A stretch of DNA of 64,000 nucleotides from Bacteroidia bacterium (GTDB lineage Bacteria > Bacteroidota > Bacteroidia > 2-12-FULL-35-15), in contig JAGVJJ010000040.1 of NCBI GenBank assembly GCA_020051175.1, positions 22,175-86,174 on the forward strand, in the 5' to 3' direction. Positions 1 through 36,035 of the stretch are shown one piece after another. The notes beneath the pieces are model-generated. The model made no database searches, was not told the origin of the DNA, and saw only the letters and a program-made list of their open reading frames with translations. Both the position numbers and the translations under genes were made by a program. The stretch's first letter is position 1. Every line of letters starts with the position of its first letter.

Positions 1-464
1 TCAATGGTTGGTATATTGGCTGCAACATCAGTTGTAAAGTCTTCCATGGAATTTCCAAGTCCAAGAATAAACTGGTTTCCAAGGTAAGAGGCATGGCAGG
101 TAAGGCAGTTAGGTGCAACTACTTTAACACCATTAAATGCATCTACTTCTGTATAGTTATATGGAATGGTGGCATTTACTCCTGTTCTTCCCAATTCATT
201 GGTGTTGGACGAATACGGAAACTGTGGGGTAGGGATACCTGCGTAAGCAAAGTTCCCGTTCTTTATGAAGTCTTCTCCCAAGGCAGCGTTCCCGTTACTG
301 CGTTGTGTGCTCGGCTCCACATAGCTGGTTCCTGCAGGAAGGGTATTGGACGGGGTTGATGGAGCGGGTGTTTCAGGGGCAGCTTCCTCCTTTTTGCAGG
401 AATGAATAACAATGATTGCAATTGCAATAAAAAGAAAACTGTATACTGTTTTGTTGCGTTTCAT
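1..464 (-). CDS. c-type cytochrome family lipoprotein; 5' portion only, gene runs off the window edge
   Basis: Minus-strand ATG at 462-464, open to the window start. Translation MKRNKTVYSFLFIAIAIIVIHSCKKEE has a lipoprotein-type signal ending in Cys. A single CxxCH heme-binding motif (NCLTCHASY) follows. Absent from the ORF track because no stop codon lies in the window. Confidence 0.5.
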   Translation of the reverse strand, partial: MKRNKTVYSFLFIAIAIIVIHSCKKEEAAPETPAPSTPSNTLPAGTSYVEPSTQRSNGNAALGEDFIKNGNFAYAGIPTPQFPYSSNTNELGRTGVNATIPYNYTEVDAFNGVKVVAPNCLTCHASYLGNQFILGLGNSMEDFTTDVAANIPTI

Positions 465-555
465 GAGTTTAAAAAATTTAATGGAAGGTAAAAATACAAC
501 TAATACATACTCAAGTCAAGTCCCAGGGTAAGGCAGAAATAAAAGAATACAAAAG

Positions 556-912
556 TTATTCCGGTTGTTCTGGCCTTACCTTGGCTGACAGGTGTTTGGG
601 AGCAACCTGGCAGTATGCTGTTTTTAATGCGTCTGTTAATATGTCTTTGCGTACCTTTTTAAGCTCAATGTAAGTCCATCCCTGCTTGCCCCATTTGTTG
701 GGAACAGCATAGATGGTGGCACTGTCGAATGCAGTAAAAACGCTTTGGTCAATTTCCGATAATTTAATACAAGCCATGTTTGATTTTATATCCAGTGTTG
801 CAAATATTTTTTTCGCTACTCTGAACGATGTCTTTTCAAAGTGTGGAAGCTCTGTGGCTTCGGGTAATGATAATGCGAGTTTTCTGAACGTGTTTATACT
901 AATCATGCACAA
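556..912 (-). CDS. MmcQ/YjbR family DNA-binding protein
   Basis: 118 aa. The LPEATELPHFEKTSFRVAKKIFATL pattern and the length are typical of YjbR/MmcQ proteins. Confidence 0.65.
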   Translation of the reverse strand: MCMISINTFRKLALSLPEATELPHFEKTSFRVAKKIFATLDIKSNMACIKLSEIDQSVFTAFDSATIYAVPNKWGKQGWTYIELKKVRKDILTDALKTAYCQVAPKHLSAKVRPEQPE

Positions 913-1065
913 GAGGTATTTAATCTTGTAAAGTTAAACAAACTCTGCATACACCTATAAGTGCCGATATTCAAATCTTATGTTACAGATGGGTTGTTTT
1001 TGTGTTTCAATATTTTTTTCAAATAAAAAAATAATATATATTCGTATAACCCAAAACTTAACACC

Positions 1066-11581: not shown

Positions 11582-14500
11582 ATGAAAAAAAACTTACTTC
11601 GTTCCATTTTGCTCATAATTTGTTTCAGCTACACAGCTTTAGCTCAGCAATGGATAAAGAATCTGCCTGCGGGCAAAGCAAAAGAGGATTTAACGTTTTA
11701 TGATTATCAGAATGCGTTTTACTCCTATTGGGCTCCCTATAATGTTGAAAATGGATGGTATTATGTGAATGGTGTAAAGAAAAAGGCATTTGGATGGAAA
11801 CATTTTAAACGCTGGGAATATGCCATGCTTGGCGAAATAGACCCGGCAACAGGAATGTTTCCAAATAAAACGGCTCAGAAAGCCTATGAAGAATACCTTT
11901 CTTCCAATCCTGCACCACCCACTGTACAGTCGGCCAACTGGAGCTGTTTGGGCACCAACAGCTCTGATGGTGGATATTCCGGTATTGGCCGTGTAAGCTG
12001 TATCGCTTTTCACCCTTCAAATCCGAGCATTTATTGGGTAGGAGTGAATGCTGGCGGATTATGGCAAACAACAGACAATGGTGCCAGCTGGACCTGTTTA
12101 ACAGACAATAACGCGGTTTTGGCCGTAAGCGACATTATTATCCCCTCCGACTTTTCTGTGTCAAACACTATTTATATTGCCACTGGTGACAGGGATGCAT
12201 CTGATAACAACAGTATTGGTGTTTTGAAATCAACCGATGGTGGTGCAACCTGGAACACAACAGGCCTTACATTCCCCATTTCAGCAGGAGATCTTATCAG
12301 CAGAATGCTGGTAGATCCAAACAACAACCAGGTGATTATTGCTTCTACTACAAACGGTGTTTACAAAACCACAAATGGTGGCACTACCTGGAACACACAG
12401 CTTACATCAACCTATTTCATTGACATTGAGTATATGCCAGGCAATTTTAATACGTTGTATGGTTCCACTCAATACGGTGAAATATATGTATCTACAAATG
12501 GCGGATCTTCATGGACACAGGCATTCACCGATGGCAGCGCTTACAGGATAGAGCTGGCAGTATCCCCAAACCAGCCTTCGTGGGTATATGCTGTAGCAGC
12601 GGGTTCTGATGATGGTCTTTATGGTGTTTATAAATCCACCGACAACGGTGCATCATATAGCCAGGTATTCAGCGGAACAACCACAAACATGCTTGGTTAT
12701 GAGGAAGACGGAAGCGGTAGTGGAGGGCAGGGTTGGTACGACCTTACGATTGCAGCTTCTCCATCCGATGCAAACAATGTATTTATAGGTGGTGTAAACA
12801 CATGGGCAACGACAGATGGTGGAAACAGCTGGACAATTAAAAACCATTGGACCGGAAGCCAGACAACACCAGCTGTTCATGCAGACAAGCATTTTCTCAA
12901 ATTCCATAGCAATGGAACCCTGTTTGAGTGCAATGATGGAGGTGTTTATTTAACAACTGATAATGGCACCACCTGGACAGATAAAACCAATGGTATGGTC
13001 ATAAGCCAGATGTACAAGCTGGGTGTTTCTGCAACAGTGGCCAATGAAACTATAACCGGCTTGCAGGACAATGGTTCCAAGCTTTTGAGTGGAGGAACAT
13101 GGTATGATGTAAAAGGTGGTGACGGTATGGAGTGCCTCATTGATTATACGGATGTGAACGTTCAGTATGCAACCTATGTTAACGGTCAGATTACGCGTAC
13201 TTTGGACCGCTGGCAGAGCGATTACACGGATATTGAGCCGTCAGGCGCGGGATCGGGTGCATGGGTAACGCCTTACATTATTGACCCGGTAAACAATCAA
13301 ACACTGTATGCAGGATATGCTGAGGTGTGGAAAACTACCGACAGGGGAAACAATTGGACAAGTATTTCCTCTATCAATTCTTCCGATAAAATTCGTTCAA
13401 TGGCTATTTCCGCTTCCAACAACCAGGTGTTGTACGTGGCAGATCTTTCCATTATCTGGAAAACGACTGATGGTGGCACCAACTGGACAGACATAACAGG
13501 AACGTTGCCTGTAAGCAATGGAAATATTACTGCAATAGCAGTTAAACACAATGATGAAAATACAGTATGGGTAACCCTCGGGGGATATAATGCAAACCGG
13601 GTGTTTGAAACAATTGACGGAGGGACTACCTGGACCAATATCTCAACCGGGTTGCCGAATATACCAACTTATTCTATTGTTCAGAATAAGCAATCTACCG
13701 GCAATGTACATCTTTATGTGGGCACTGAGGTTGGTGTTTATTTAAAAGATGGTTCCAACAACTGGGTGGCATACAACACCAATTTGCCAAATGTCAGAAT
13801 TGGGGAACTTGAAATCTATTATGCTGCAAACCCCGAAGATTCGAAATTAAGGGCCGCTACATATGGAAGAGGATTGTGGGAATCTCCAACATACAATGAT
13901 GCTGCTCCTATGACTTATGTATCCAGTACAACAACACAAAGCAATACAAACACAGTTGCTCCGGGTACAACCAACCAACAGATTATTGGGGTTGAAATTG
14001 TTAATACGGGAAATATAAGCCCGCTCACGGTTACTGCCTTCACATTCAACACCACCGGCTCAACAAGTCCGGTTACGGATATTACTAATGCCAAGCTGTT
14101 TTATACGGGCTCCAGCAGCACATTTGCAACTGGTACACAATATGGTGCCACAAGCCTTGCTCCAAGCGGTTCGTTTATCATTTCCGGTTCTCAGGCGCTC
14201 AATGGTGGTACAAACTATTTCTGGCTTACATATGATGTACCTGCCTCTGCAACGATGGACAATTTCCTGGATGCAGAATGTACTTCATTTACAATGAGTG
14301 GAATTAAAACCCCTACAATAACAAGCCCATCTGGCAACCGCCAGATTGCGATTTCTTATTGTGGTGGCACTGCCTCACAATGTGATGAATTTGTTGCCAA
14401 TGTAACTTTTGGTACCGTAAACAATACTACTACCTGCACGGCCGGTGGTTATGCGGATTATACATCTATGAGCACAACGATTGCACCAGGGGGTACGGAG

Positions 14501-21082: not shown

Positions 21083-24070
21083 GTGCTAAACTTAATCATC
21101 ATGAAAACATCTGCTACTTATCAAGAGTGCTATAAGCCAAAACAAGGTTTTGGCGCAAGGCTCCTATTTTGTGCATTGCTTTTGAGCTTTATTGGCTTAT
21201 CAAAAGCATTTGCCCAGGCACCTCCGGCTCCGGTTGCCACAGCTGCTACCAATATTACCTGTACAAGCTTTGAAGCGAACTGGAGTGCAGTTTCCGGTTC
21301 AATCGCTTATTTTTTGGATGTCAGTACAGACACAACGTTTTCTACGTTTGTTGGCAGTTTTAATAATCTGAATGTTGGAAATGTGACCACTTTTCTGGTT
21401 ACCGGCATGTCTTCTACATCAGCTTATTATTATAGGGTAAGGGTACAGGATAACAATGGTACAAGCTTAAACTCAAACACCATGACAGTTTATCCAACCG
21501 TAATGGCAACCATTTCACCCATAACTCAGACAATTTGTTCTGGCGATCAGGCTATTTTTGCTATATCGAGTTCTGACCCAAATGCCACCTATAGCTGGAC
21601 AGTTACCCAGGGCAATGTTTCTGGAGCTACGGCTGGCAGTGGAAATGTTATTAATCAAACTTTGGCCGTTACGGGACCAAATTCCGGATACGTTTATTAT
21701 ATGGTAACACCTGTTGGCAATGGATGCACTGGCGGTACTGTAACAGCTTACGTTTCTGTATTGGATTGTCAGGGTAATAGCGGTATATCGTTTGTGGCTC
21801 CACAAAATGGCGCAACCATAAATAACAGGTGTGAGCTTCAGTTTTGTGCTGATTCTGTAGGAATTAATCAGGCGCTGGAAATCAGGGATGCAGCACTGGA
21901 TGTTGTTGCTTACATATACTCTGGTCAGGGCGGAACACATTGTACTGCAATGAATCAATATTATACCGGGACGATACCTTCCGGTTCCAATACTTTCTAT
22001 CTGACTGCAGGTGGTATTTTCTATGATACTGTTACTGTAAATGTTACCGCACCAATTGTTTCGCTTCAAAATGAACTTACATATACACAAACAGCAACAA
22101 CCAATGGTGGTTATGATTTTACAATAAGTGGATTTTCTGCCACCGAAACCTATACTATGGTTTTGAACAATTATTATAACAATCAATACGATACCGTTTT
22201 CGTAAGCAATACTACCACAGCAACCATCTCTCATCAATTTCCATACGATGGCGATTTCTTCGGTGATATTTATGTAACAGCCGACTGTGATGGCTCCATG
22301 TCTCATGACTCGATGTATGTTTCGGTTAATAACAGCTCCTGCTCTAATTTTATAGCTTTGAATTACAGCTCCATCTATGTAAACTCAAACTGTGGATCAA
22401 ATACTGTTGATTTGCAGGGCGGTATTAACTACGGTGGTCTGGGGGCGAATGACTCAAGCCAGGTTACAATAAACTGGGGGGATGGAAATATCCAGACCAT
22501 ACAAATGGCGCACGGTGGCAACACCTCCGGGTATCTTTCATTCCCGTCCATTTCACATACATACAATGCTCCTGGAACATATACCGGCTTTGTTACTGTA
22601 TTCAACGCTAACGCATGTTATGTGGATACCTTAATCCAATCGGTTACAATTGGAAGCACTACCTGCGGAAGCTTAACTGGTAATGTTTTCAGCGATGTTA
22701 ATTCAAACTGTGCTTTGGATAACGGAAGCGATATCGGATTGTCTTACATCTGGATTACTGCCACTGATAACAGCAGTAACGTTTTTTATGCCTGGACCGA
22801 CTACAATGGAAACTATGCATTCAATACCCTTCCAAACGGGGTGTATACTGTTGATTTAGCTTACCTGAACTCCGGCTACTCAATTACTTGCCCTGGTTCA
22901 TTCCCGCAAACAGTAACAATTAATAACAATTCAATTGTAAAAAACTGTGCTGTTACTTGTAGCGGTTCTTTTGATGCTGCCATTACCGGCATCTCTTTAT
23001 GGAGTGGTTTCTTCCCTGGACAGTCGGATGCCATCCTGCCTCATGTTGGTTTATTAAACGCGGCTTGTAATGCTGGTGTATCCGGACAGGTGAAAATTGT
23101 TTTGGATGCCTGCATACAATACACTTCTCCATCTACATACAGTGGTGCTGGTGCTCCTGATGCAGTCATCACTGCTTCAACCGGTGATACACTTGTATGG
23201 AATGTAAGTGATATTACCAACATTGGTACATTCGGATACTACGATTATGCGATTAATACTTTAACCTGTACATCAGCTCAGGTTGGGGATTCAGCGTGCA
23301 TCACAATGATAATCACACCTACAAACGGTGACGCAGATCCAAGCAACAACACATTTACACGTTGCTTTGAAATTGGTGTTAGCTATGATCCTAACAACAA
23401 GGAAGTGATGCCTGCTGGCGAAGGTGCAGAAGGGTTTATACCAGCTGATCAGCCTTCGTTGACTTACACGCTGAACTTCCAGAACACAGGTACTGCAAAA
23501 GCGTGGAACATATATGTGATGGATACTATCGATACTGATTTGGACATCAACAGCATCGAAATATTGAGCGCCAGCCACAAAATGCAGGTGTATACTTTAC
23601 CAAACCGTGCAATTAAGTTTATGTTTGCCGACATCATGTTGCCTGACAGCACAAACGATGAGCCAAACAGCCATGGTTATGTTACTTTCAAAATCAAATT
23701 AAACCCAGGCCTGGCTCCGGGAACTGAAATCGAAAATACAGGTCATATCTATTTCGATTACAATGAACCGGTTGTGACCAACACTACTCTTAATACTATT
23801 GAGTTGCCTTCATCTGTGCAGTCCATCAGTAAGTCATCAGTAGTAAGAGTTTACCCAAATCCTGCAAAAGAAAGTGTAACTGTTTTATCTAACAGCAGCA
23901 GCGCAGGTGTAATAACTGTTACTGATATCTTAGGAAAAACAGTAAAAGAAGTAAAAACCACTTCAGAGAAAACAGTTGTAAATACAACAGATTTGGAAAG
24001 CGGGGTTTACTTCATTAAACTTGCTCAGGACAATGTAATCAGAACAGAAAAAATAATGATTACAAAATAA
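21083..24070 (+). CDS. large T9SS-secreted surface protein (FN3-like, TIGR01451-type conserved repeat domain, T9SS C-terminal sorting domain)
   Basis: Signal peptide. The FN3-like segment TNITCTSFEANWSAV...AYYYRVRV. The conserved-repeat-domain pattern LTYTLNFQNTGTAKAWNIYVMDTID. C-terminal VRVYPNPAKESVTV...GVYFIKL matches the T9SS type A domain. Confidence 0.75.
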   Translation: MLNLIIMKTSATYQECYKPKQGFGARLLFCALLLSFIGLSKAFAQAPPAPVATAATNITCTSFEANWSAVSGSIAYFLDVSTDTTFSTFVGSFNNLNVGNVTTFLVTGMSSTSAYYYRVRVQDNNGTSLNSNTMTVYPTVMATISPITQTICSGDQAIFAISSSDPNATYSWTVTQGNVSGATAGSGNVINQTLAVTGPNSGYVYYMVTPVGNGCTGGTVTAYVSVLDCQGNSGISFVAPQNGATINNRCELQFCADSVGINQALEIRDAALDVVAYIYSGQGGTHCTAMNQYYTGTIPSGSNTFYLTAGGIFYDTVTVNVTAPIVSLQNELTYTQTATTNGGYDFTISGFSATETYTMVLNNYYNNQYDTVFVSNTTTATISHQFPYDGDFFGDIYVTADCDGSMSHDSMYVSVNNSSCSNFIALNYSSIYVNSNCGSNTVDLQGGINYGGLGANDSSQVTINWGDGNIQTIQMAHGGNTSGYLSFPSISHTYNAPGTYTGFVTVFNANACYVDTLIQSVTIGSTTCGSLTGNVFSDVNSNCALDNGSDIGLSYIWITATDNSSNVFYAWTDYNGNYAFNTLPNGVYTVDLAYLNSGYSITCPGSFPQTVTINNNSIVKNCAVTCSGSFDAAITGISLWSGFFPGQSDAILPHVGLLNAACNAGVSGQVKIVLDACIQYTSPSTYSGAGAPDAVITASTGDTLVWNVSDITNIGTFGYYDYAINTLTCTSAQVGDSACITMIITPTNGDADPSNNTFTRCFEIGVSYDPNNKEVMPAGEGAEGFIPADQPSLTYTLNFQNTGTAKAWNIYVMDTIDTDLDINSIEILSASHKMQVYTLPNRAIKFMFADIMLPDSTNDEPNSHGYVTFKIKLNPGLAPGTEIENTGHIYFDYNEPVVTNTTLNTIELPSSVQSISKSSVVRVYPNPAKESVTVLSNSSSAGVITVTDILGKTVKEVKTTSEKTVVNTTDLESGVYFIKLAQDNVIRTEKIMITK

Positions 24071-24091
24071 GGTTTATTCAGGCTTCAATTC

Positions 24092-24207
24092 AAACGGCTC
24101 AGCCCCGGTTTGTCAAGTAAACGTTTCGCAGCGTTAAAGTTTATAAGGTTTAGCACTTCTCTGATACTTTATAGCGAAACACTTGACAAACCGGGGCTGA
24201 GCCGTTT
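24092..24207. repeat. long inverted repeat: 27-bp perfect arms with a 62-nt spacer, extended imperfectly, followed by a T-run
   Basis: AAACGGCTCAGCCCCGGTTTGTCAAGT at 24092-24118 pairs perfectly with ACTTGACAAACCGGGGCTGAGCCGTTT at 24181-24207. An inner CGTTTCGC/GCGAAAC repeat extends the stem. TTTTTT follows. Confidence 0.5.
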
Positions 24208-24582
24208 TTTGTTATGTCCATGAGGAAGTTTTCGCATGAGAACGAAAAAACTTACCATAACCTTATGGAAACTCCTGCAAAGTAAAAAAATTTTTTAACT
24301 TTGGAAATTTGTATAAAATACGAGATAACTAATTATAGTTCAGGCAGGAATTATTTTGGAATAGATAAGGAGCAAATAAACAGGCGAAACAACTAAATAA
24401 CGGAATTTTACATTTGTTGCACTGCTTGGAATTTTGGGGTAATGCCAGGTTTGGAAAAACAATATCTCAAAATTAAGTATTAAGTGTAAAAAAATGCCAA
24501 ATAGAAGAGCAGATAACTGGTGGGCATTAATAAGATATTTTGAAAACCAATTACAAAACCTTTAAATAAGTCCGGAAGATAT

Positions 24583-25500
24583 ATGAAATGGGAGAAAAAG
24601 GGCAGAATATTTGAACCGAAAGGTCAGTTTGAATGGATGCGTAAATATGGTATTGTGCCAACTCCTGTATACTTAAGAGAAACAAATAGTATTCGTATTT
24701 TCTTTGCAACCGCAACATCAGATAATATTGGTCGAATTACCTATATGGATGTTGAAGCGAATAATCCATCTAATATCATAAAACAACCAGATAAAATTTT
24801 ATTATACGAAGGGGAACCAGGAACATTTGATGATTGTGGGGTTAATCCAACCAGTTTTGTTGTTCATGAGGGAAAAGAATATCTTTATTACGTGGGTTAT
24901 GAACGTTCTTTCAAAGTACCGTTTACTTTGTTTCCGGGAATATCCGTTGGGAATGTTAAAGATGGATTTAAACGTGTGAAGCATGTTCCTTTTATTGACC
25001 GGTCCGAAAAATATCCATATTCGCTTGCAGCCCCATTTGTTTTAATAGATAAAAATAAATTCAAATTGTGGCTATGGTTGGGGGTGAAGTGGGTAAAAGT
25101 GAACGGAAAAGATTATCTAAGCGCTAAAATCGGGTATGCGGAATCTGAAAATGGTTTGGATTTTAAAATACTACACGACAACTGTATTGTACCCAATCAG
25201 GATAATGAATTCTCCGTTGGCCGGCCTTGGGTTATAAAAGACGGAAGTATTTATAAAATGTTTTATTCTGTCAGATATGTTGATAAACTTTACCGCTTAG
25301 GGTATGCCGAATCTGATGATGGTATCAATTGGATACGAAAGGACGAACAAATAGGAATAGATGTTTCTTCTGTTGGATGGGATAGTGAAATGATTTGCTA
25401 TCCGGCTGTTGTAAAAACCGACAATAAAACATTCTTATTTTATAATGGCAATAACAATGGCATATCTGGTTTTGGATATGCGGAACTTGTTAATGAGTAA
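24583..25500 (+). CDS. putative 5-bladed beta-propeller glycoside hydrolase/phosphorylase-like protein (GH43/GH130-like fold), cytoplasmic
   Basis: 305 aa, no signal peptide. Repeated hydrophobic-Gly-acidic blades (GRPWVIKDGSIYKMFYS, TSFVVHEGKEYLYYVGY). First gene of a 5-gene operon. Confidence 0.45.
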   Translation: MKWEKKGRIFEPKGQFEWMRKYGIVPTPVYLRETNSIRIFFATATSDNIGRITYMDVEANNPSNIIKQPDKILLYEGEPGTFDDCGVNPTSFVVHEGKEYLYYVGYERSFKVPFTLFPGISVGNVKDGFKRVKHVPFIDRSEKYPYSLAAPFVLIDKNKFKLWLWLGVKWVKVNGKDYLSAKIGYAESENGLDFKILHDNCIVPNQDNEFSVGRPWVIKDGSIYKMFYSVRYVDKLYRLGYAESDDGINWIRKDEQIGIDVSSVGWDSEMICYPAVVKTDNKTFLFYNGNNNGISGFGYAELVNE

Positions 25501-25520
25501 AAAATTAACACATTAAATAT

Positions 25521-26273
25521 ATGGCAGAAATTGAATGGACAAGAGCTTCTCAAGAACAAAAAGAAGCACGTAAAGCGTTTAGGGAAATGTATATCAATAC
25601 CCCAATACCGATTGAAGATATTTTTGTAAACTTCGGGTTGTATATACGTAGTTCATACCTTGCCAACATACTTTGTATGAATGAAATTTACCAGATGATT
25701 TTGCCGATTCCAGGAGTAATAATAGAATTTGGTACCTGGTGGGGTAGTAACCTTACTTTGTTTCATAATCTCAGGGGGGTATATGAGCCTTATAATTACA
25801 GCCGTAAAGTAATTGGTTTTGATACCTTTACCGGATATCCTGATATCCTTAAGGAAGAAGATAAAAATTCACCGTGGCTAAAAACAGGTAATTATGCAGT
25901 ACCTGATGGATATAAAAGTTATCTGGAACAAGTATTAAGCTATCACGAAAAGGAAAATCCGCTTCCGCATAAAAAGAAATTTGATTTGGTGCAAGGTGAT
26001 GTTACAAAAACGTTACCCCAGTATCTAAAAGACCATCCTGAAACCATTGTTGCTATGGCTTTTATTGATTTGGGAATGTACGAAGCAACTAAAAAAGTGT
26101 TGCAGGAATTAAAGCCCCGCTTAGTAAAGGGCAGTATTATAGTGTTTGATGAAATCAATTGCCCGGAAATGCCCGGAGAAACCATCGCATTAATGGAGGT
26201 CTTTGGGTTAGATAAATACCGGATTGTGCGTTCAAAGTATACGCCTGACAGAAATTTTCTGATTATTGAATAA
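25521..26273 (+). CDS. class I SAM-dependent methyltransferase, TylF/MycF (Methyltransf_24)-like
   Basis: GVIIEFGTWWGSN (glycine-rich SAM loop) and IDLGMYEATKKVLQELKPRLVKGSIIVFDE parallel the TylF macrocin O-methyltransferase motifs. Confidence 0.55.
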   Translation: MAEIEWTRASQEQKEARKAFREMYINTPIPIEDIFVNFGLYIRSSYLANILCMNEIYQMILPIPGVIIEFGTWWGSNLTLFHNLRGVYEPYNYSRKVIGFDTFTGYPDILKEEDKNSPWLKTGNYAVPDGYKSYLEQVLSYHEKENPLPHKKKFDLVQGDVTKTLPQYLKDHPETIVAMAFIDLGMYEATKKVLQELKPRLVKGSIIVFDEINCPEMPGETIALMEVFGLDKYRIVRSKYTPDRNFLIIE

Positions 26274-30111: not shown

Positions 30112-30528
30112 ATGGCAGAAGACAGAATAAATTCAAGCAAAGCACCGGAACCTGTAGGATTATACCCCCATGCCCGTAAAGTAGGCAATTTGCTGTTCCT
30201 TTCAGGAGTGGGTCCGCGTGAGCGGGGAACCAAGAAGATTCCAGGCGTAGACTTGGATGAAAAAGGGAATATTGTGTCTTACGATATTGAAACACAGTGC
30301 AAAAGCGTGTTCCAGAACGTGAAATACATCCTGGAAGATGCCGGCAGCAGCTGGGATAAAATTGTGGATGTGCAGGTATTCCTCACCAATATGAAAGACG
30401 ATTTTGCCACCTATAACCGCGTGTATGCAGAGTGGTTCAAAGATAACCAGCCTTGCCGCACTACCATTGAAATCAATTGTTTACCAACTCCTATTGCGAT
30501 TGAGTTGAAAGTAATTGCAACGATATAA
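30112..30528 (+). CDS. ridA: RidA/YjgF family reactive-intermediate deaminase
   Basis: 138 aa. The APEPVGLYPHARKVGNLLFLSGVGP pattern and the C-terminal TTIEINCLPTPIAIELKVIA are typical of RidA. Confidence 0.85.
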   Translation: MAEDRINSSKAPEPVGLYPHARKVGNLLFLSGVGPRERGTKKIPGVDLDEKGNIVSYDIETQCKSVFQNVKYILEDAGSSWDKIVDVQVFLTNMKDDFATYNRVYAEWFKDNQPCRTTIEINCLPTPIAIELKVIATI

Positions 30529-30532
30529 TAAC

Positions 30533-30940
30533 ATGAGAATTATTGTTTTTTTCATTCTCATACTGATCTCTAAGCTGGTATTTGCCCAGGATGAAGATAA
30601 AAGAGGAACAATAAAACTTAAAAAACCATCTGACTCATGTGTTGCAATGGTGTTGGGGTATAGCGGAGAAAATTTTGTAGACAAAGAGAAGATTGCAAAC
30701 ATCAAAAAGGTAGAGTTAAATGAAGGTTGCGACTATAAAATAATTTCATTCTCGGTAATGTATACGGATAGTGAGGACTGGACAAGAATAATACCTTCTG
30801 TTGGCGACAAAGTTGGACACAATGTTGGCGATCAGATAAAAGGAGCATCCGGTGTAACGTTTGGCAACATTATAGCAAAAAGCAATACTACGGGGGAAGA
30901 AATAAAATTGCCTCCCATTATTTTAATAATAACTGATTAA
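30533..30940 (+). CDS. hypothetical small secreted protein
   Basis: MRIIVFFILILISKLVFAQ is a signal peptide. The track ORF starts at 30515; the later Met at 30533 avoids overlap with ridA. Ends ATGA, overlapping the ileS start. Confidence 0.4.
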   Translation: MRIIVFFILILISKLVFAQDEDKRGTIKLKKPSDSCVAMVLGYSGENFVDKEKIANIKKVELNEGCDYKIISFSVMYTDSEDWTRIIPSVGDKVGHNVGDQIKGASGVTFGNIIAKSNTTGEEIKLPPIILIITD

Positions 30941-33900
30941 TGAAAAAATACACCGAATACAAAGGCCTTGACCTTTCCCAAACAGCGAAGGATGTTCAGA
31001 AGAGCTGGGATGAGAATAATATATTTGAAAAATCCATCACTTCACGTGAAGGCAAAGCACCTTTTGTATTTTACGAAGGGCCACCAAGCGCGAACGGCTT
31101 GCCGGGGATTCACCACGTAATGGCCCGTTCCATTAAAGATATATTCTGCCGTTATAAAACCCAAAAAGGGTTCCAGGTGAAACGTAAGGCGGGCTGGGAT
31201 ACGCACGGTTTGCCGATAGAGTTAAGCGTTGAAAAGGCTTTGGGCATTACCAAAGAGGACATCGGTAAAAAAATTACTGTGGAGCAGTACAACATCGAGT
31301 GCCGCAAGGATGTAATGAAATACACCGATAAGTGGGAGGACTTAACAAAGAAAATGGGCTATTGGGTGGACATGCAGCACCCCTACATTACTTACGATAA
31401 CAAATACATTGAGTCCGTTTGGTGGTTGCTGAATAACCTGTACAGCAAAGGAATGCTGTACAAAGGGTTTACTATACAACCGTATTCTCCCGCAGCAGGA
31501 ACAGGGCTTTCATCGCATGAGCTGAACCAGCCGGGTTGTTACAGGGATGTGAAGGACAGGACTGCAGTTGCGATGTTCCGCCTCTCCCCAACCCTCTCCC
31601 AAGGAGAGTGGGCTTTTACCGAATTAAAGAAAGGATTATCGGAAGAAGAGCTTAACAATACTTACTTTTTAGCATGGACTACTACACCTTGGACATTGTC
31701 TTCAAATACTGCGCTTGCGGTTGGAAAAAATATTGAATATGTTTTGATAAAAACCCAGAATCAATTTACTGGAAAAGAAATTAATGTAATTGTTGCTAGT
31801 GATTTAGCAGCAAAGTATATTAAAGGCTACGGTTCCAAATTTGAAGAAAATGTAATTACTGGATGGGGGTTAGACGCATCAGGTAATCTACAAGCATTTA
31901 ATCCTAAGGAACCATATAATAATTGGAAGCAACTTGCCAAATTCATTGGTTCTGATATAGCAGGTTTAAAATATGAGCAACTACTACCATTTGAAGCCAA
32001 CAAATTCGTTGAGCTAAATGGTAAGAACCTCCCCTTTGGGGAGGCGGGAGGGGCTGTAATCATTGGCGATTTCGTTACAACCGAAGACGGTACTGGCATC
32101 GTACACATCGCGCCAAGCTTTGGTGCGGACGACTTTAGAGTGGCCAAACAAAACGGCATTGGCTCATTAACATTGGTTGACAGACGCGGTAAGTTTTTAC
32201 CGGAAGTAAAAGACGGCATCTTCCTATACGGTGAAGAGTACGTAAAAGAAGCCTATTTGACAGATGCTGAAAAAGAAGCCGAATTCCAAAACCAAAAGAA
32301 AGTTCTTGAAGCAAACGGCAAGATAAAAGAGCTGAAAGCATACTTAAGCGTGGATGATCGAATCATCTTAAAACTGCAGGAGGAAGGCAAACTCTTCAAA
32401 AAAGAAACCTACGAGCACAGTTACCCGCATTGCTGGAGAACAGATAAACCGGTTTTGTACTATCCACTGGACAGCTGGTTCATCAAAACTACGGACTACA
32501 AAGACCGTATGATTGAGCTGAACAAAACCATCAATTGGAAGCCGGAATCTACCGGTACAGGGCGTTTTGGTAACTGGCTGGAGAATCTGAACGACTGGAA
32601 TTTATCGCGTTCCCGCTTCTGGGGCATTCCAATTCCTATCTGGACAAGCGAAGACAAAACAGAGCAAATCTGCATTTCTTCTGTGGAGGAATTGCAGAAG
32701 GAAATCACCAATGCTGTTGCAAAAGGAGTGATGAAAGACAGTCCACTTGCGGCTTTCAGAGCGGGTGATATGAGCGAGGCCAATTACAACACCTTTGACT
32801 TGCACAAACCTTATGCAGATAATATTGTGCTGGAGCGCAATGGTAAAAAGCTTTTCCGTGAGCCGGATTTGATTGACGTTTGGTTTGATTCGGGCGCAAT
32901 GCCTTATGCACAGCTGCATTACCCCTTTGAGAACAAAGAATTGATTGACGGCCCATCCCCAACCCTTCCCCAAGGGAAGGGAGTAAGCCCTAAGTATCAG
33001 ACAGCAAGAAATTCATCCTATAATTTGCTGAAAGAATTAGCTATAGAAAGAAAAAAACAACAAACAGAGAGTGAAACAATTCTTTGGAATTTGCTTAAGG
33101 GAAAACAATTAGGAAATTATAAATTCAGACGCCAGCATATAATTGATGAGTTTATTGTGGATTTTGTTTGCCTTCAGAAAACTTTGGTTGTTGAAGTAGA
33201 TGGTGGTTATCATTCCAAACCGGAAATACTTGAAGCCGATACTCTAAGAACAAATATTCTGAACGAATTGGGTTTTAAAGTTTTAAGATTTAAAAATGAA
33301 GAAGTGATAAACAATACTGAACAAGTATTAAAAATAATTGAAACGGCACTTAACACACAGAAAACCCTCCCCTTGGGGGAGGGCAAGGGAGGGGCTTTCC
33401 CTGCCGATTTCATCGCAGAAGGGGTGGATCAAACACGCGGATGGTTCTTTACTTTACATGCGATAGCTACCATGTGCTTTGACTCTGTGGCTTACAAAAA
33501 CGTAGTCAGCAATGGCCTGGTATTGGATAAAAACGGACAAAAAATGAGCAAACGCTTAGGCAATGCGATTGATCCGTTTGTGACCATTGAAAAATACGGC
33601 CCGGATGCTACACGCTGGTACATGATTACCAATGCGGCACCCTGGGACAACCTTAAATTTGATATTGAAGGCATAGGGGAGGTGCAGCGCAGTTTCTTCG
33701 GTACGCTTCACAATACATACTCATTCTTTGCATTGTATGCCAATGTGGATGGTTTTGTATACAAAGAAGCCGAAATTCCGGTAATTGATCGCCCGGAAAT
33801 TGACCGCTGGATTTTATCCGAGCTGAATACCTTGATAAAAAAGGTGGATGAGGCTTATTCTGAATACGAGCCTCACCGTGCCGGTCGTTACATCGAAACC

Positions 33901-34914
33901 TTTGTGGATGAGCACCTTAGCAACTGGTATGTACGTCTGTGCCGCAGACGTTTCTGGAAAGGCGAATACTCACACGATAAAATAGCTGCTTACCAGACAC
34001 TTTACCGTTGTATGGAAGTAATTGCCCAGCTTTCGGCTCCAATAGCTCCCTATTTTATGGACAGGCTGTATTCCGATTTAAACAGTATCACAGGTCGTGA
34101 TAAGGCAAGTTCCATCCATTTAAGCAATTTTCCGGAATCAGATACTTTCCTGATTGACAAGGATTTGGAAGAACGTATGGAGCTGGCTCAGAAAGTATCT
34201 TCCATGATATTGTCGATACGCAAAAAGGAGAATATCCGTGTGCGTCAGCCTTTGAATAAAATCCGTATTCCGGTTTTAGACGAATCGTATAAGACTAAAA
34301 TTGAGGCGGTTAAGGATTTGATTTTGTCGGAAGTAAATGTGAAGGAAATTGAGTTTGTGAGCGAGGCGGATACCCAAATTGTGAAGAATATGAAGCTGAA
34401 TTTCAAGACTTTAGGCAAAAAATGCGGCAAACATATGAAGGCGGTTCAGGCCTTTGCAAATGAAAATGCACAGGCTGTAATTTCCGGTATCGAAAAAACA
34501 GGAAAATTCGATATAAAGATTGATAATGAGGTAATTGTATTGGATACGGAAGATGTGGAAATTATTCCGGTAGACATCCCGGGATGGAAAGTGGCCAATT
34601 CGGGACAAATAACTGTGGCCCTGGATGTTACATTAACTGCAGAACTGCGGGAAGAAGGCCTGGCGCGTGAGTTGGTAAACCGTATCCAGAACCTCAGAAA
34701 GGAAAGTAACCTGGATGTAACAGACAAGATTGACGTGAAAATTCAGAGAAATTCGGCTATAAATGAAGCGATTAACAATAATTTAAACTATATTTGCACC
34801 GAAATTTTGGCGTCTTCATTGGAACTTGTCGACACTTTGGAGGCAAAAATAGGTGCTGAGATTGAACTAGACGAACAAATAAAGACCTTAATCACCATTA
34901 CTAAATTAAATTAA
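30940..34914 (+). CDS. ileS: isoleucine--tRNA ligase (type 2), carrying three in-frame insertions
   Basis: P-x-ANG/HH region (PPSANGLPGIHHVMAR). TTTPWTL editing-domain motif. KMSKRLGN (KMSKS motif). At 1324 aa it is about 170 aa longer than typical Bacteroidota IleS; the extra length comes from insertions at about residues 215-225, 362-372 and 672-818. Confidence 0.95.
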   Translation: MKKYTEYKGLDLSQTAKDVQKSWDENNIFEKSITSREGKAPFVFYEGPPSANGLPGIHHVMARSIKDIFCRYKTQKGFQVKRKAGWDTHGLPIELSVEKALGITKEDIGKKITVEQYNIECRKDVMKYTDKWEDLTKKMGYWVDMQHPYITYDNKYIESVWWLLNNLYSKGMLYKGFTIQPYSPAAGTGLSSHELNQPGCYRDVKDRTAVAMFRLSPTLSQGEWAFTELKKGLSEEELNNTYFLAWTTTPWTLSSNTALAVGKNIEYVLIKTQNQFTGKEINVIVASDLAAKYIKGYGSKFEENVITGWGLDASGNLQAFNPKEPYNNWKQLAKFIGSDIAGLKYEQLLPFEANKFVELNGKNLPFGEAGGAVIIGDFVTTEDGTGIVHIAPSFGADDFRVAKQNGIGSLTLVDRRGKFLPEVKDGIFLYGEEYVKEAYLTDAEKEAEFQNQKKVLEANGKIKELKAYLSVDDRIILKLQEEGKLFKKETYEHSYPHCWRTDKPVLYYPLDSWFIKTTDYKDRMIELNKTINWKPESTGTGRFGNWLENLNDWNLSRSRFWGIPIPIWTSEDKTEQICISSVEELQKEITNAVAKGVMKDSPLAAFRAGDMSEANYNTFDLHKPYADNIVLERNGKKLFREPDLIDVWFDSGAMPYAQLHYPFENKELIDGPSPTLPQGKGVSPKYQTARNSSYNLLKELAIERKKQQTESETILWNLLKGKQLGNYKFRRQHIIDEFIVDFVCLQKTLVVEVDGGYHSKPEILEADTLRTNILNELGFKVLRFKNEEVINNTEQVLKIIETALNTQKTLPLGEGKGGAFPADFIAEGVDQTRGWFFTLHAIATMCFDSVAYKNVVSNGLVLDKNGQKMSKRLGNAIDPFVTIEKYGPDATRWYMITNAAPWDNLKFDIEGIGEVQRSFFGTLHNTYSFFALYANVDGFVYKEAEIPVIDRPEIDRWILSELNTLIKKVDEAYSEYEPHRAGRYIETFVDEHLSNWYVRLCRRRFWKGEYSHDKIAAYQTLYRCMEVIAQLSAPIAPYFMDRLYSDLNSITGRDKASSIHLSNFPESDTFLIDKDLEERMELAQKVSSMILSIRKKENIRVRQPLNKIRIPVLDESYKTKIEAVKDLILSEVNVKEIEFVSEADTQIVKNMKLNFKTLGKKCGKHMKAVQAFANENAQAVISGIEKTGKFDIKIDNEVIVLDTEDVEIIPVDIPGWKVANSGQITVALDVTLTAELREEGLARELVNRIQNLRKESNLDVTDKIDVKIQRNSAINEAINNNLNYICTEILASSLELVDTLEAKIGAEIELDEQIKTLITITKLN
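31584..31613 (+). repeat. solo copy of the palindromic left-end repeat (CCCCAACCCTCTCCCAAGGAGAGTGGG), in-frame inside ileS
   Basis: About 80% identical to the left terminus of the element at 32953-32990. Encodes LSPTLSQGEW, compared with PSPTLPQGKG in the full element. Core palindrome CTCTCCCAAGGAGAG. Confidence 0.5.
32026..32055 (+). repeat. solo copy of the palindromic right-end repeat (AACCTCCCCTTTGGGGAGGCGGGAGGGGCT), in-frame inside ileS
   Basis: Nearly identical to the right terminus at 33363-33396. Encodes NLPFGEAGGA, compared with TLPLGEGKGGA. Core palindrome CCTCCCCTTTGGGGAGG. Confidence 0.5.
32953..33393 (+). mobile_element. 441-bp miniature element with palindromic terminal inverted repeats and a DUF559 (Vsr-like endonuclease fold) domain, inserted in-frame in ileS
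   Basis: Left end CCCTTCCCCAAGGGAAGGG (32963-32981). Right end CCCTCCCCTTGGGGGAGGG (33365-33383). Each end is itself a palindrome and the two are inverse-related. The cargo peptide RRQHIIDEFIVDFVC...LVVEVDGGYH...LGFKVLRFKNEEV matches DUF559. It lies between conserved IleS residues ELIDG and AFPADFIAEG, which are contiguous in orthologs. Confidence 0.6.
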
Positions 34915-34925
34915 CAAAATACACA

Positions 34926-36035
34926 ATGGCAAAAAAAGCGCAAAAAGGCAAACCGGTAAAAAAAGCCGCGAAACCTGCTAAGCCTGCTAAAAAAGCAGCT
35001 GCGAAACCAGCAAAACCAGCAAAAAAAGCAGCACCTAAAAAGGCCGCTAAGCCTGCTAAGAAAGCGGTTGCAAAGCCAGCTAAAAAAGCAGCTAAGCCTG
35101 CACCTAAAAAAGCCGCAAAACCAGCTAAAAAAGTAACTGCAAAGCCAGCAAAAAAATCGATTTCAAAACCGGTTAAAAAAGCTGCTAAGCCAGTTAAAGC
35201 TGCAGGCAAAGCAAAACCTGTTGCAAAGAAATCTGCAAAACCTGCAAAAGTAAGCAAGCCGGTTGCTAAAAAAGTAAGCAAGCCGGTTGCTAAAAAAGTA
35301 AGCAAACCTGTTGCAAAAGCAGTAAAAAAGGTAAGCAAACCTGTTGCTAAACCAATAGCGAAAAAAGCAGAAAAACCAGTAGCGAAAAAGCCGCTTGTTA
35401 AGGAAGCTGTAAAAAGCCCCGTTAAACCAATTGAAAAAGCAACTGCTAAAACAGATGCTAAAAAAACGACTGAGAAACCCGTTGTTGCTGTTAAACCAGT
35501 AGCTCCTGTTGTTAAAAAAGCTGAGCCAAAGAAAAAGTACGAAGCTGATCTTGATGATGATGGTAGCTCCAGGGATGATGAGCCAATGGTTGTAGAATAC
35601 AAAACTCCAAGCATTCAACGCCCTATGGGACCAATACCAAAACCACATATCAATACCGATAACAGAACACGTTATACCGATTCAGAATTAAAAGAATTTA
35701 AAGAGTTGATCCTTAAAAAGCTTGAAGAAGCGCAAAAGGATTATGAATTGTTAAAGAGCACACTTTCTCACAAAGATGATCATGGTACTGATGATACCTC
35801 TCCAACATTCAAATTGCTGGAAGATGGTTCTGATGTATTGTCAAAAGAAGAAACAGCTCATTTGGCAAGCCGCCAGGAGAAATTCATCCAGAACCTGCAA
35901 AATGCGCTTATCCGTATTGAAAACAAAACATACGGTATCTGCCGCGCTACAGGCAAGTTGATCTCTAAAGAGCGTTTAAGAAGCGTGCCTCATGCTACTT
36001 TAGCGATTGAAGCTAAATTGGAGCAGCATAACTAA
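34926..36035 (+). CDS. DksA/TraR family protein fused to an N-terminal histone-H1-like Lys/Ala/Pro repeat region
   Basis: Residues 1-190 are KAAKPAKK-type repeats. The C-terminal 130 aa (DSELKEFKELILKKLEEAQ...YGICRATGKLISKERLRSVPHATLAIEAK) resembles the DksA/TraR coiled coil plus a C-terminal finger, with only one Cys retained. Confidence 0.65.
   Translation: MAKKAQKGKPVKKAAKPAKPAKKAAAKPAKPAKKAAPKKAAKPAKKAVAKPAKKAAKPAPKKAAKPAKKVTAKPAKKSISKPVKKAAKPVKAAGKAKPVAKKSAKPAKVSKPVAKKVSKPVAKKVSKPVAKAVKKVSKPVAKPIAKKAEKPVAKKPLVKEAVKSPVKPIEKATAKTDAKKTTEKPVVAVKPVAPVVKKAEPKKKYEADLDDDGSSRDDEPMVVEYKTPSIQRPMGPIPKPHINTDNRTRYTDSELKEFKELILKKLEEAQKDYELLKSTLSHKDDHGTDDTSPTFKLLEDGSDVLSKEETAHLASRQEKFIQNLQNALIRIENKTYGICRATGKLISKERLRSVPHATLAIEAKLEQHN
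34944..35400 (+). repeat. tandem/cryptic coding repeats (AAG-CCN-GCN-AAA units), including an exact 24-nt tandem duplication at 35250-35297
   Basis: GTAAGCAAGCCGGTTGCTAAAAAA occurs twice in tandem, followed by a degenerate third unit. Low-complexity DNA encoding KPAKKAA. Confidence 0.6.

Follow-up and report, generated by a model that had tools for sequence, protein, structure and literature searches.

We report that the isoleucyl-tRNA synthetase gene (ileS) in a 64-kb stretch of a Bacteroidia bacterium genome (contig JAGVJJ010000040.1; the whole stretch analysed is called the window) is interrupted, with its reading frame intact, by a 450-nt element in which a DUF559 nuclease lies between two inverted hairpin units, and that at least 18 further host gene families show this architecture, at recurrent sites. 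With moderate confidence, we interpret it as a selfish, non-splicing, in-frame nuclease element that is translated within its host enzyme and spreads in a homing-like manner. The prevailing view is that a selfish element can enter an essential gene only by removing itself again, introns from the RNA and inteins from the protein. The window element appears to stay in the protein, and to do so repeatedly, in aminoacyl-tRNA synthetases, RecG, PriA, MetH and other enzymes across Bacteroidota.

The host gene (30940-34914, plus strand) is a continuous open reading frame (ORF) for a type-2 isoleucyl-tRNA synthetase (IleS) of 1324 aa, identified by TIGR00392 (NCBIfam, 961 bits, cutoff 621) and, in Pfam, by the domains tRNA-synt_1, Anticodon_1 and DUF5915 together with a full-length DUF559. 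The complete element (32950-33399, plus strand) sits in a length-variable loop between ...HYPFENKELID and PADFIAEGVDQTRGWF. Its left terminal hairpin unit (T-type, 32950-32983, plus strand) reads GGCCCATCCCCAA-CCCTTCCC-CAA-GGGAAGGG-AG and encodes the linker GPSPTLPQGKG; the DUF559, or Vsr-like PD-(D/E)xK, nuclease core (32983-33357, plus strand) corresponds to aa 682-806 of the fusion protein and has no internal Met; and the inverted right unit (C-type, 33361-33396, minus strand) reads GCCCCTCCCTTG-CCCTCCCC-CAA-GGGGAGGG on the minus strand and encodes TLPLGEGKGGA on the plus strand. The predicted protein runs through the junctions ...ELID/GPSP... and ...GKGGA/FPADF; peptides spanning them would be, for example, ELIDGPSPTLPQGK and, with element residues in front, GGAFPADFIAEGVDQTR or FPADFIAEGVDQTR. 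Two shorter inserts, both single hairpin units, lie in the same gene: S1 (31580-31612, plus strand; a left-oriented, slightly decayed member of the CTCTCC subfamily) is located where the CP1 region begins and encodes LSPTLSQGE, and S2 (32025-32057, minus strand; C-type, right orientation), CCTCCCC-TTT-GGGGAGG-CGGGAGGGGC, encodes NLPFGEAGGA. All three inserts are missing from many IleS orthologs at 75-91% identity and from the closest solved structure, the IleRS 8c8w, in which the native loop at the main site is short and solo site 1 falls in a gap. A preliminary description of this DNA had called the three segments in-frame and lineage-specific, and the continuous ORF and the many empty orthologs bear this out. 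Because the full-length IleS model from AlphaFold2 (AF2) is too poor (mean pLDDT 50, pTM 0.32), the probable surface exposure of the three sites is read solely from length variability in the alignment.

Presence and absence of the element can be compared directly in one strain background. Contig L001 aligns to window positions 20939-43450 and encodes an IleS (P0002) that is 99% identical to the window protein and carries both solo units, with the DUF559 segment missing. Its positions 12007-12025 correspond to window 32946-33399, and where the window has 450 nt this empty allele has the 15 nt AAT AAA AAA TAC TAT (NKKYY; duplex sequence ...GAATTGATCGATAATAAAAAATACTATCCTGCCGATTTC...), the replaced ileS sequence being AATAAAAAA-rich. 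The large insertion had been put at 441 bp; it is real, yet its size must be restated as 450 nt replacing 15, a net gain of 435 nt or 145 codons. The flanks of the two alleles have zero mismatches over 1.7 kb upstream and about 3 kb downstream of the site, and two synonymous changes are found in the two codons directly upstream of the insert. Comparison of the filled and empty alleles revealed no target-site duplication: the 15-nt stretch is replaced and no flank is duplicated.

Among the 120 best homologs of the window IleS, 11 (69-94% identity) have DUF559 at the same position, and most of the 75-91% identical orthologs without it read D[NSQ]KKYYPADF. In a neighbour-joining tree built on the insert-free IleS columns the DUF559-bearing alleles fall into at least four separate groups, and sister pairs differ in insert state (window filled and P0002 empty; P0003 filled and P0010 empty). 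A DUF559 insert at this ileS codon position is present in six independent assemblies from different samples and has diverged in sequence among them, so that it is not an assembly artefact.

The nuclease is complete. Pfam PF04480 (DUF559) matches aa 699-804 with E 3e-33 and 114.5 bits (cutoff 20.6) over profile positions 5-108 of 109, in agreement with the complete domain first described, and DUF559 and MTES_1575 are the only Pfam profiles to match the 150-aa insert. A sequence search of the PDB found 3hrl, a Neisseria DUF559 protein (E 4e-20), and, weakly, 3r3p (phmmer E 0.03). An AF2 model of the isolated insert, built on a 70-sequence alignment, reaches a pLDDT of about 90 in the core (residues 20-145), has about 35 helical residues N-terminal to the core, and stays below 50 at the ends, where the unit-encoded peptides are predicted to be disordered. 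In Foldseek this model matched 3hrl with a target TM-score of 0.87 and the catalytic domain of I-Bth0305I (3r3p) with 0.80 (E 5e-5, probability 1.0), followed by PvuRts1I and AbaSI (0.21-0.22, E 0.005-0.03) and by Vsr (1cw0 and 1vsr; 0.51 and 0.47, E ~0.08). As far as the predicted fold can tell, the closest characterised structure to the insert core is therefore a homing-endonuclease catalytic domain. VSR, DUF559 and I-Bth0305I have been placed in one PD-(D/E)xK clade (Steczkiewicz et al., PMC3424549), and I-Bth0305I is a group-I-intron homing endonuclease with N-terminal NUMOD and helix-turn-helix (HTH) modules (Taylor et al. 2011, PMC3239194).

Several features indicate that this core has been maintained as a protein. 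D59, E70, D72, H76 and D85 (core numbering) are invariant in our alignment A2, and the catalytic D/E/D/H are also invariant in the 11 IleS copies, which were found through host homology and hence independently of the nuclease. Across six filled ileS alleles the ratio of nonsynonymous to synonymous divergence (dN/dS) of the core is 0.02-0.19, at a synonymous divergence (pS) of 0.28-0.72 with synonymous sites near saturation, which argues that selection has preserved a functional protein throughout the divergence of the host alleles. In base composition the core stands apart from the host gene: GC is 30.9% (GC3 22.6%) in the core against 42.9% (GC3 46.3%) in ileS, below the value of each of the 105 host windows, and every filled allele shows this offset. 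The insert contains no Met at all, and a Met lies near the core in 9 of 51 embedded relatives vs 13 of 21 stand-alone ones. Purifying selection, intact catalytic residues and the pairing with element-specific hairpins in 77 relatives together make DUF559 the likely engine of the element. The preliminary description had spoken of an endonuclease-fold cargo; the fold was recognised correctly, and these same three features argue against a passive role. PADLOC gave a weak match to its HEase model, and membership in a defence system was rejected, as the PADLOC matches to nuclease modules are weak.

The terminal arms (32951-32981 and 33365-33395) are 31 nt long, inverted and 81% complementary, as anticipated from the palindromic look of the termini. 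Each carries an 8-bp GC hairpin, CCCTTCCC-CAA-GGGAAGGG in the left arm and CCCTCCCC-TTG-GGGGAGGG in the right one, the predicted DNA folding energies of the units being -8.4 and -9.2 kcal/mol. The loop of one arm is the reverse complement of the loop of the other, which marks the arms as genuine inverted copies. The terminal motif gave 0 matches in 100 shuffles of the window, and in the rest of the 64 kb (40.6% GC) there is no further unit, comparable GC hairpin or second DUF559; the motif had indeed been reported as confined to this gene within the window. Both stems are identical in the six filled alleles and the loops vary (CAA, AAA or GAA on the left; TTG, TTA or TTT on the right); pS in the left unit is 0-0.1, vs 0.5-0.8 in the sequence around it. 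Between elements the stems differ yet stay paired, and the loops remain reverse-complementary within each element. Among the 77 elements with both flanks, alignment of the left flank to the reverse complement of its own right flank gave a mean score of 16.1, compared with 9.3 for the right flanks of other elements (Mann-Whitney p = 5e-17) and 9.2 for its own right flank read directly (Wilcoxon p = 1e-10). Selection at the nucleotide level suggests that the termini act as DNA or RNA, probably as recognition or processing sites. We also observed that, in C-type units (window 33361-33396, minus strand; L002-L120), GGGGAGG comes after a homopyrimidine mirror repeat (CCCCTCC ... CCTCCCC). Because the upstream arm matches the purine arm exactly for parallel Hoogsteen pairing, such units might conceivably fold into an intramolecular triplex; T-type units have one misfit position (CCCATCC vs GGGAAGG).

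The solo units of ileS belong to the same hairpin superfamily. The left-oriented copy in S1 (31580-31604) is 84% identical to the element terminus over 25 nt and the right-oriented copy in S2 (32023-32044) 86% identical over 22 nt, and the likeness of either to the full element, in DNA or protein, is not significant past the ~30-nt unit (scores as high were reached by 808 and 1456 of 2000 shuffles). The short inserts had been described as solo copies of the termini of a miniature element bounded by terminal inverted repeats (TIRs). Single hairpin units they are; they are not TIR-bounded, and the stem of S1 belongs to the CTCTCC subfamily, unlike the termini of the window element. At the S1 site, L124, L123 and L206 have intact unit copies, and in another lineage (L138) the site is occupied by a full DUF559 element; S2 is carried by P0001, P0002, P0006, P0007 and P0079 and is missing in most orthologs. 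Solo units also occur at the main site, in P0017 and P0009, and these retain the AAT codon that the filled alleles lack, so they look like independent insertions. For this reason, and because no similarity extends past the unit, we rejected the possibility that S1 and S2 are decayed full elements. The same three ileS loops hold units of different subfamily or orientation in different lineages, which points to independent insertions into permissive A-rich sites.

Outside the window, the hairpin unit is abundant in other genomes. A scan of GTDB genomes found at least 119 unit-bearing 8-kb blocks; those listed are almost all from Bacteroidota, of many families and with cultured strains among them, and DUF559 lies nearby in 4 of the 119 among the matches listed. 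The consensus is AAAA-GCCC[C/A]TCCC-N2-4-CCT[C/T]CCC-AAA-GGG[G/A]AGG-AG, the A-tracts lying 5' of the units. Among the listed matches, all six frames are free of stop codons in 103 of 129 units (9% of random 31-mers), 26 of 129 lie deep inside open frames (60% of random positions), and 64% have a stop triplet within 12 nt upstream (37% at random). With so few units deep in frames and stops so often just upstream, the solos resemble repetitive extragenic palindromic (REP) elements, being mainly extragenic with a minority in genes.

Complete elements are likewise not peculiar to ileS. We scanned metagenomes with the DUF559 alignment, using patterns that include the catalytic motifs, and confirmed 588 relatives, of which we examined the best 80 (L126-L205), picked for their likeness to an embedded copy. 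Among these, 51 are nested in-frame in long ORFs, 6 are fused to the N-terminus and 2 to the C-terminus of a host protein, and 21 stand alone. Nested hosts confirmed with Pfam include RecG, where the element lies between the DEAD and Helicase_C domains; LeuS and MetH, each at two sites; ValS, MetG, PriA, acetyl-CoA synthetase (Acs) and BirA; IcmF/MeaB, methylmalonyl-CoA mutase and a MiaB-like radical-SAM enzyme; and adenine deaminase, GH31, DegT and an epimerase. IspF and Gmk carry DUF559 at the N-terminus, and protein matches add Tgt and CinA-like hosts. IleS itself is invaded both at the main site of the window and, in L138, at solo site 1. Three further cases come from GTDB genomes: RecG in Polaribacter, MetH in a Chitinophaga metagenome-assembled genome (MAG) and LeuS in a MAG that is labelled Paceibacterota. 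DUF559 matched 21,910 cluster representatives at E <= 0.001 in an independent gene-call library, and 63 of the 150 best are proteins of at least 300 aa with an internal DUF559. Elements insert into variable loops flanked by strongly conserved motifs and often follow Lys/A-rich codons. The closest relative of an embedded core occupies the same host gene in 39 of 65 cases and is in a different host gene or a stand-alone copy in the other 26; as cross-gene nearest neighbours are at most 69% identical, lineages are largely site-faithful and switches rare.

Three of these loci have peculiarities of their own. On L009, a 362-kb contig of the MAG labelled Candidatus Paceibacterota, an element of the same type lies in-frame in LeuRS (294-318 and 1-1035, minus strand; left peptide NPSPALPKGKGE), reflecting either horizontal transfer outside Bacteroidota or mis-binning. 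On L140 (upstream of 2501-2860), an epimerase/Polysacc_synt_C ORF has at least four tandem hairpin units, encoding LSPLEGEARKG, directly before the nested DUF559. The best-scoring cluster representative, P0241 (377 aa), has three DUF559 stretches in one protein.

These observations can be brought together as follows. With no start codon, Met, intron or intein of its own, the insert would be made only as part of IleS, that is, transcribed and translated as an internal domain of the synthetase. The hairpin units would supply disordered Pro/Gly-rich linkers, letting the nuclease fold as a separate module, and an element length divisible by three, together with units free of stops in every frame, keeps the essential gene open. 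Homologous recombination would then carry the element from one ileS allele to another, most likely stimulated by the embedded nuclease nicking or cleaving the empty A-rich site, as in homing, with recombinational copying to follow. S1 and S2, for their part, are solo members of the hairpin superfamily, REP-like and mostly extragenic Bacteroidota repeats that occasionally land in permissive loops. We prefer a homing-like route because the elements are site-faithful, have no target-site duplication and show a junction that is a replacement and not a simple insertion.

Known homing endonucleases resemble the window element in part. The EDxHD, or Vsr-like, homing endonucleases (I-Bth0305I, 3r3p) share with the window element the catalytic fold of the core and the conserved E...D...H...D set, and like it they occupy fixed sites in conserved housekeeping genes, sporadically and with empty alleles. 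For the window element the fixed site is the IleS position filled in the 69-94% identical proteins, and recurrent sites are seen in other hosts. However, homing genes reside in introns, in inteins or as free-standing genes, and here there is no Hint domain, no Rfam intron and no break between the ORF and its host; stand-alone relatives exist elsewhere. I-Bth0305I lies inside a group I intron and its relatives in or next to inteins, whereas the window element is free of any splicing element and remains part of the host reading frame. I-Bth0305I also has NUMOD/HTH modules, where the window nuclease has only ~35 extra residues, and homing endonuclease genes lack the hairpin TIRs that the window element has.

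A number of points weigh against a homing-like, translated nuclease and keep our confidence moderate. Classical homing endonucleases need no terminal inverted repeats and usually have a larger DNA-binding domain; no NUMOD or HTH DNA-binding module was matched by Pfam in the insert, with its ~35 extra N-terminal residues. Among diverged filled alleles there is no peak of synonymous identity beside the insert, such as co-conversion would leave. The patchy distribution could stem from one ancient insertion followed by repeated loss, and the difference between the window and L001 can be read as a gain or as a loss. Divergence of insert and host is discordant in magnitude, core pS being 0.72 vs ~0.49 for the host between the window and L124 and 0.33 vs ~0.63 between L125 and L122, with the tree topology the same. 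The search patterns themselves account for part of the catalytic-residue conservation in the metagenome relatives, and selecting these relatives for their likeness to an embedded copy keeps the embedded fraction of 64% from being an unbiased estimate. Finally, both nuclease activity and translation as part of an IleS fusion are deduced from the sequence.

Classical homing also leaves the inverted hairpins and the dispersed solo units unexplained, and for this reason a hairpin-directed transposon, either cut-and-paste or of the kind formed by REPs and their RAYT transposases, stays the main alternative, unlikely as we judge it to be. DUF559 would here recognise its own terminal hairpins as cruciforms or single-stranded DNA, excise or copy the element and mobilise the solos in trans, and in-frame occupancy would simply reflect the insertions that survive selection. 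The TIRs are real and element-specific, their stems are constrained at the nucleotide level with compensatory differences between elements, the solos are abundant, dispersed and mostly extragenic as REPs are, and the A-tract preference 5' of units, the independent insertions implied by different subfamilies and orientations in the three ileS loops, and the site switching implied by the 26 of 65 cores whose nearest relative lies in another host gene or stands alone all fit such a process. Yet there is no target-site duplication and the empty allele differs by a 15-nt replacement; DUF559 accompanies only the 4 of 119 blocks mentioned above; no near-identical copies were found at different loci, given the ceiling of 69% identity between genes; and the 64-kb window has zero extragenic units. 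Moreover, the enzyme would be a lone PD-(D/E)xK nuclease of ~125 aa, and such a nuclease is not known to catalyse strand transfer.

The window element and its units share several features with REP elements and their RAYT transposases (REPtrons; PMC3733652). In both cases most of the short hairpin repeats are extragenic and often follow closely on a stop codon, an enzyme gene can lie between two inverted repeat copies, and repeat subfamilies covary with the gene they flank. RAYT, however, is an HUH/Y1 transposase of the IS200/IS605 type and not a Vsr-like PD-(D/E)xK nuclease, REPs have GTAG or CGTC heads where the present units start AAAA-GCCC[C/A]TCCC, and REPs and RAYTs are extragenic whereas the window element is nested in-frame in genes. 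Miniature inverted-repeat transposable elements (MITEs) and small insertion sequences share with it the TIRs, the small size and the short non-autonomous relatives. They differ in having a target-site duplication and a DDE, HUH, serine or tyrosine transposase, DUF559 being the only domain of the window element, and the solo units, unlike MITEs, are single termini and not TIR pairs.

It is improbable, in our view, that DUF559 is a passenger or a fossil, with the units moved by another enzyme or by recombination and the nuclease trapped or domesticated, perhaps for a nucleic-acid-related side function of the host enzymes. Its long persistence under purifying selection in several ileS lineages would also fit a host-beneficial domain, most units are solo, and the co-conversion signal is missing. 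But a domesticated domain accords poorly with presence/absence polymorphism in one strain background, with a base composition foreign to the host gene and with a homing endonuclease as closest characterised structural relative, and the same module occurs in at least 18 unrelated enzymes and in stand-alone ORFs, always with its own matched inverted hairpins. No other type of cargo was seen between unit pairs in a search that was not systematic.

Removal of the insert before or during translation, by RNA excision through the paired inverted termini or by ribosomal bypassing, would yield a mature IleS without it. The two 31-nt termini could indeed pair in the mRNA, and there are precedents elsewhere. 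Ribosomes of a yeast mitochondrion skip over GC-rich 'byp' elements. In animals, SOS splicing is triggered by pairing of TIRs (PMC12779559). We consider removal very improbable in the present case: the segment is strictly in-frame and stop-free over 450 nt here and in 51 independent nested relatives, a continuity that would not be maintained if it were removed, the core is under purifying selection in the host reading frame, and no Rfam family matches the region. A group I or II intron or other known RNA can likewise be set aside, as a search of Rfam with positions 31300-33700 gave one spurious lncRNA match (E 0.19) and the nuclease core leaves only ~35 nt to either side.

Inteins, too, are in-frame selfish insertions found sporadically at conserved sites of essential genes, with empty alleles, and they often carry a homing endonuclease, as the window element carries a nuclease. 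Inteins have a Hint domain and, at their junctions, Cys/Ser/Thr nucleophiles and a terminal His-Asn; the window insert has none of these, running from G...GGA to F/Y, and is presumably retained in the mature protein. Of its 150 aa 125 are nuclease, which leaves no room for a splicing domain. An intein was therefore ruled out on the missing Hint domain (Pfam), the wrong junction residues and the small size, and the preliminary description was right to see no intein hallmarks. Mis-assembly or a chimeric contig, and an ancient conserved extension of IleS across the family, never amounted to more than a priori possibilities and are ruled out, the former by six concordant independent assemblies and the latter by the empty site in most orthologs and in a 99%-identical strain.

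A parallel with Rickettsia palindromic elements (RPEs), reportedly described by Ogata et al. in 2000, had been drawn from the start and is apt. RPEs are palindromic, lie in-frame in protein genes including essential ones, are retained there at apparently permissive surface positions, and have copies scattered over the genome. They are 100-150 bp long, are not known to encode an enzyme and have no known autonomous partner. The units described here likewise lie in-frame in ORFs, essential ones among them, and would be retained in IleS. They are likened to RPEs by architecture alone, being ~31 nt long, GC-rich in an AT-rich genome, mostly extragenic and from another host phylum, and a subset of them brackets a nuclease gene.

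Searches of the literature for DUF559, COG2852, in-frame homing endonucleases and palindromic elements of Bacteroidetes turned up no account of this arrangement. Singly, its ingredients are known, namely Vsr-like homing endonucleases, in-frame palindromic repeats (RPEs) and the REP/RAYT architecture; their combination was not found there, and there is a substantial chance that the element merits treatment as a class of its own. A bolder proposal, to which we give somewhat less than even weight, is that these are the first recognised class of autonomous in-frame nuclease elements that colonise loops of essential enzymes without splicing, with GC-hairpins serving both as DNA ends and as linkers, homing into empty A-rich sites or solo units, and solos as non-autonomous derivatives. 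Such a class would supply the autonomous partner never identified for RPE-like, protein-invading palindromic repeats, and with it a candidate enzyme for their mobility. If the element is what we propose, tolerance through flexible linkers at permissive loops would be a third strategy for invading essential genes, and part of the large DUF559 family (the 21,910 cluster representatives above) would gain a likely biological role. Annotators would be warned that oversized housekeeping proteins may be chimeras, and protein and genome engineering would gain natural maps of insertion-tolerant sites and possibly compact site-specific nucleases.

The surroundings of ileS offer some minor observations. 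In the otherwise ~100% identical 22 kb shared with L001, window positions 22250-23250, 24000-25750 and 30500-31250 have up to 19% mismatches per 250 nt. These three patches look like recombination tracts in a cluster of glycosyltransferase and unknown genes 5' of ileS. Directly 5' of DUF559-bearing ileS genes, L122 (9479-9868) and L123 (9573-9962, both plus strand) have a small gene with a PDDEXK_3 (PF13366) nuclease fold, which takes the place of an unannotated 141-aa ORF at window 30515-30940. In the P0003 genome, a LeuRS of 1029 aa (L121 15588-18677, minus strand) lies 1.6 kb from the DUF559-bearing ileS. Just 3' of ileS in the window (34926-36035, plus strand) is a gene for a 369-aa protein whose N-terminal ~200 aa consist of KKAAKPAKK-type Lys/Ala/Pro repeats, which cause long spurious ORFs on the opposite strand, and whose C-terminal region has a faint DksA/TraR zinc-finger match in an ortholog.

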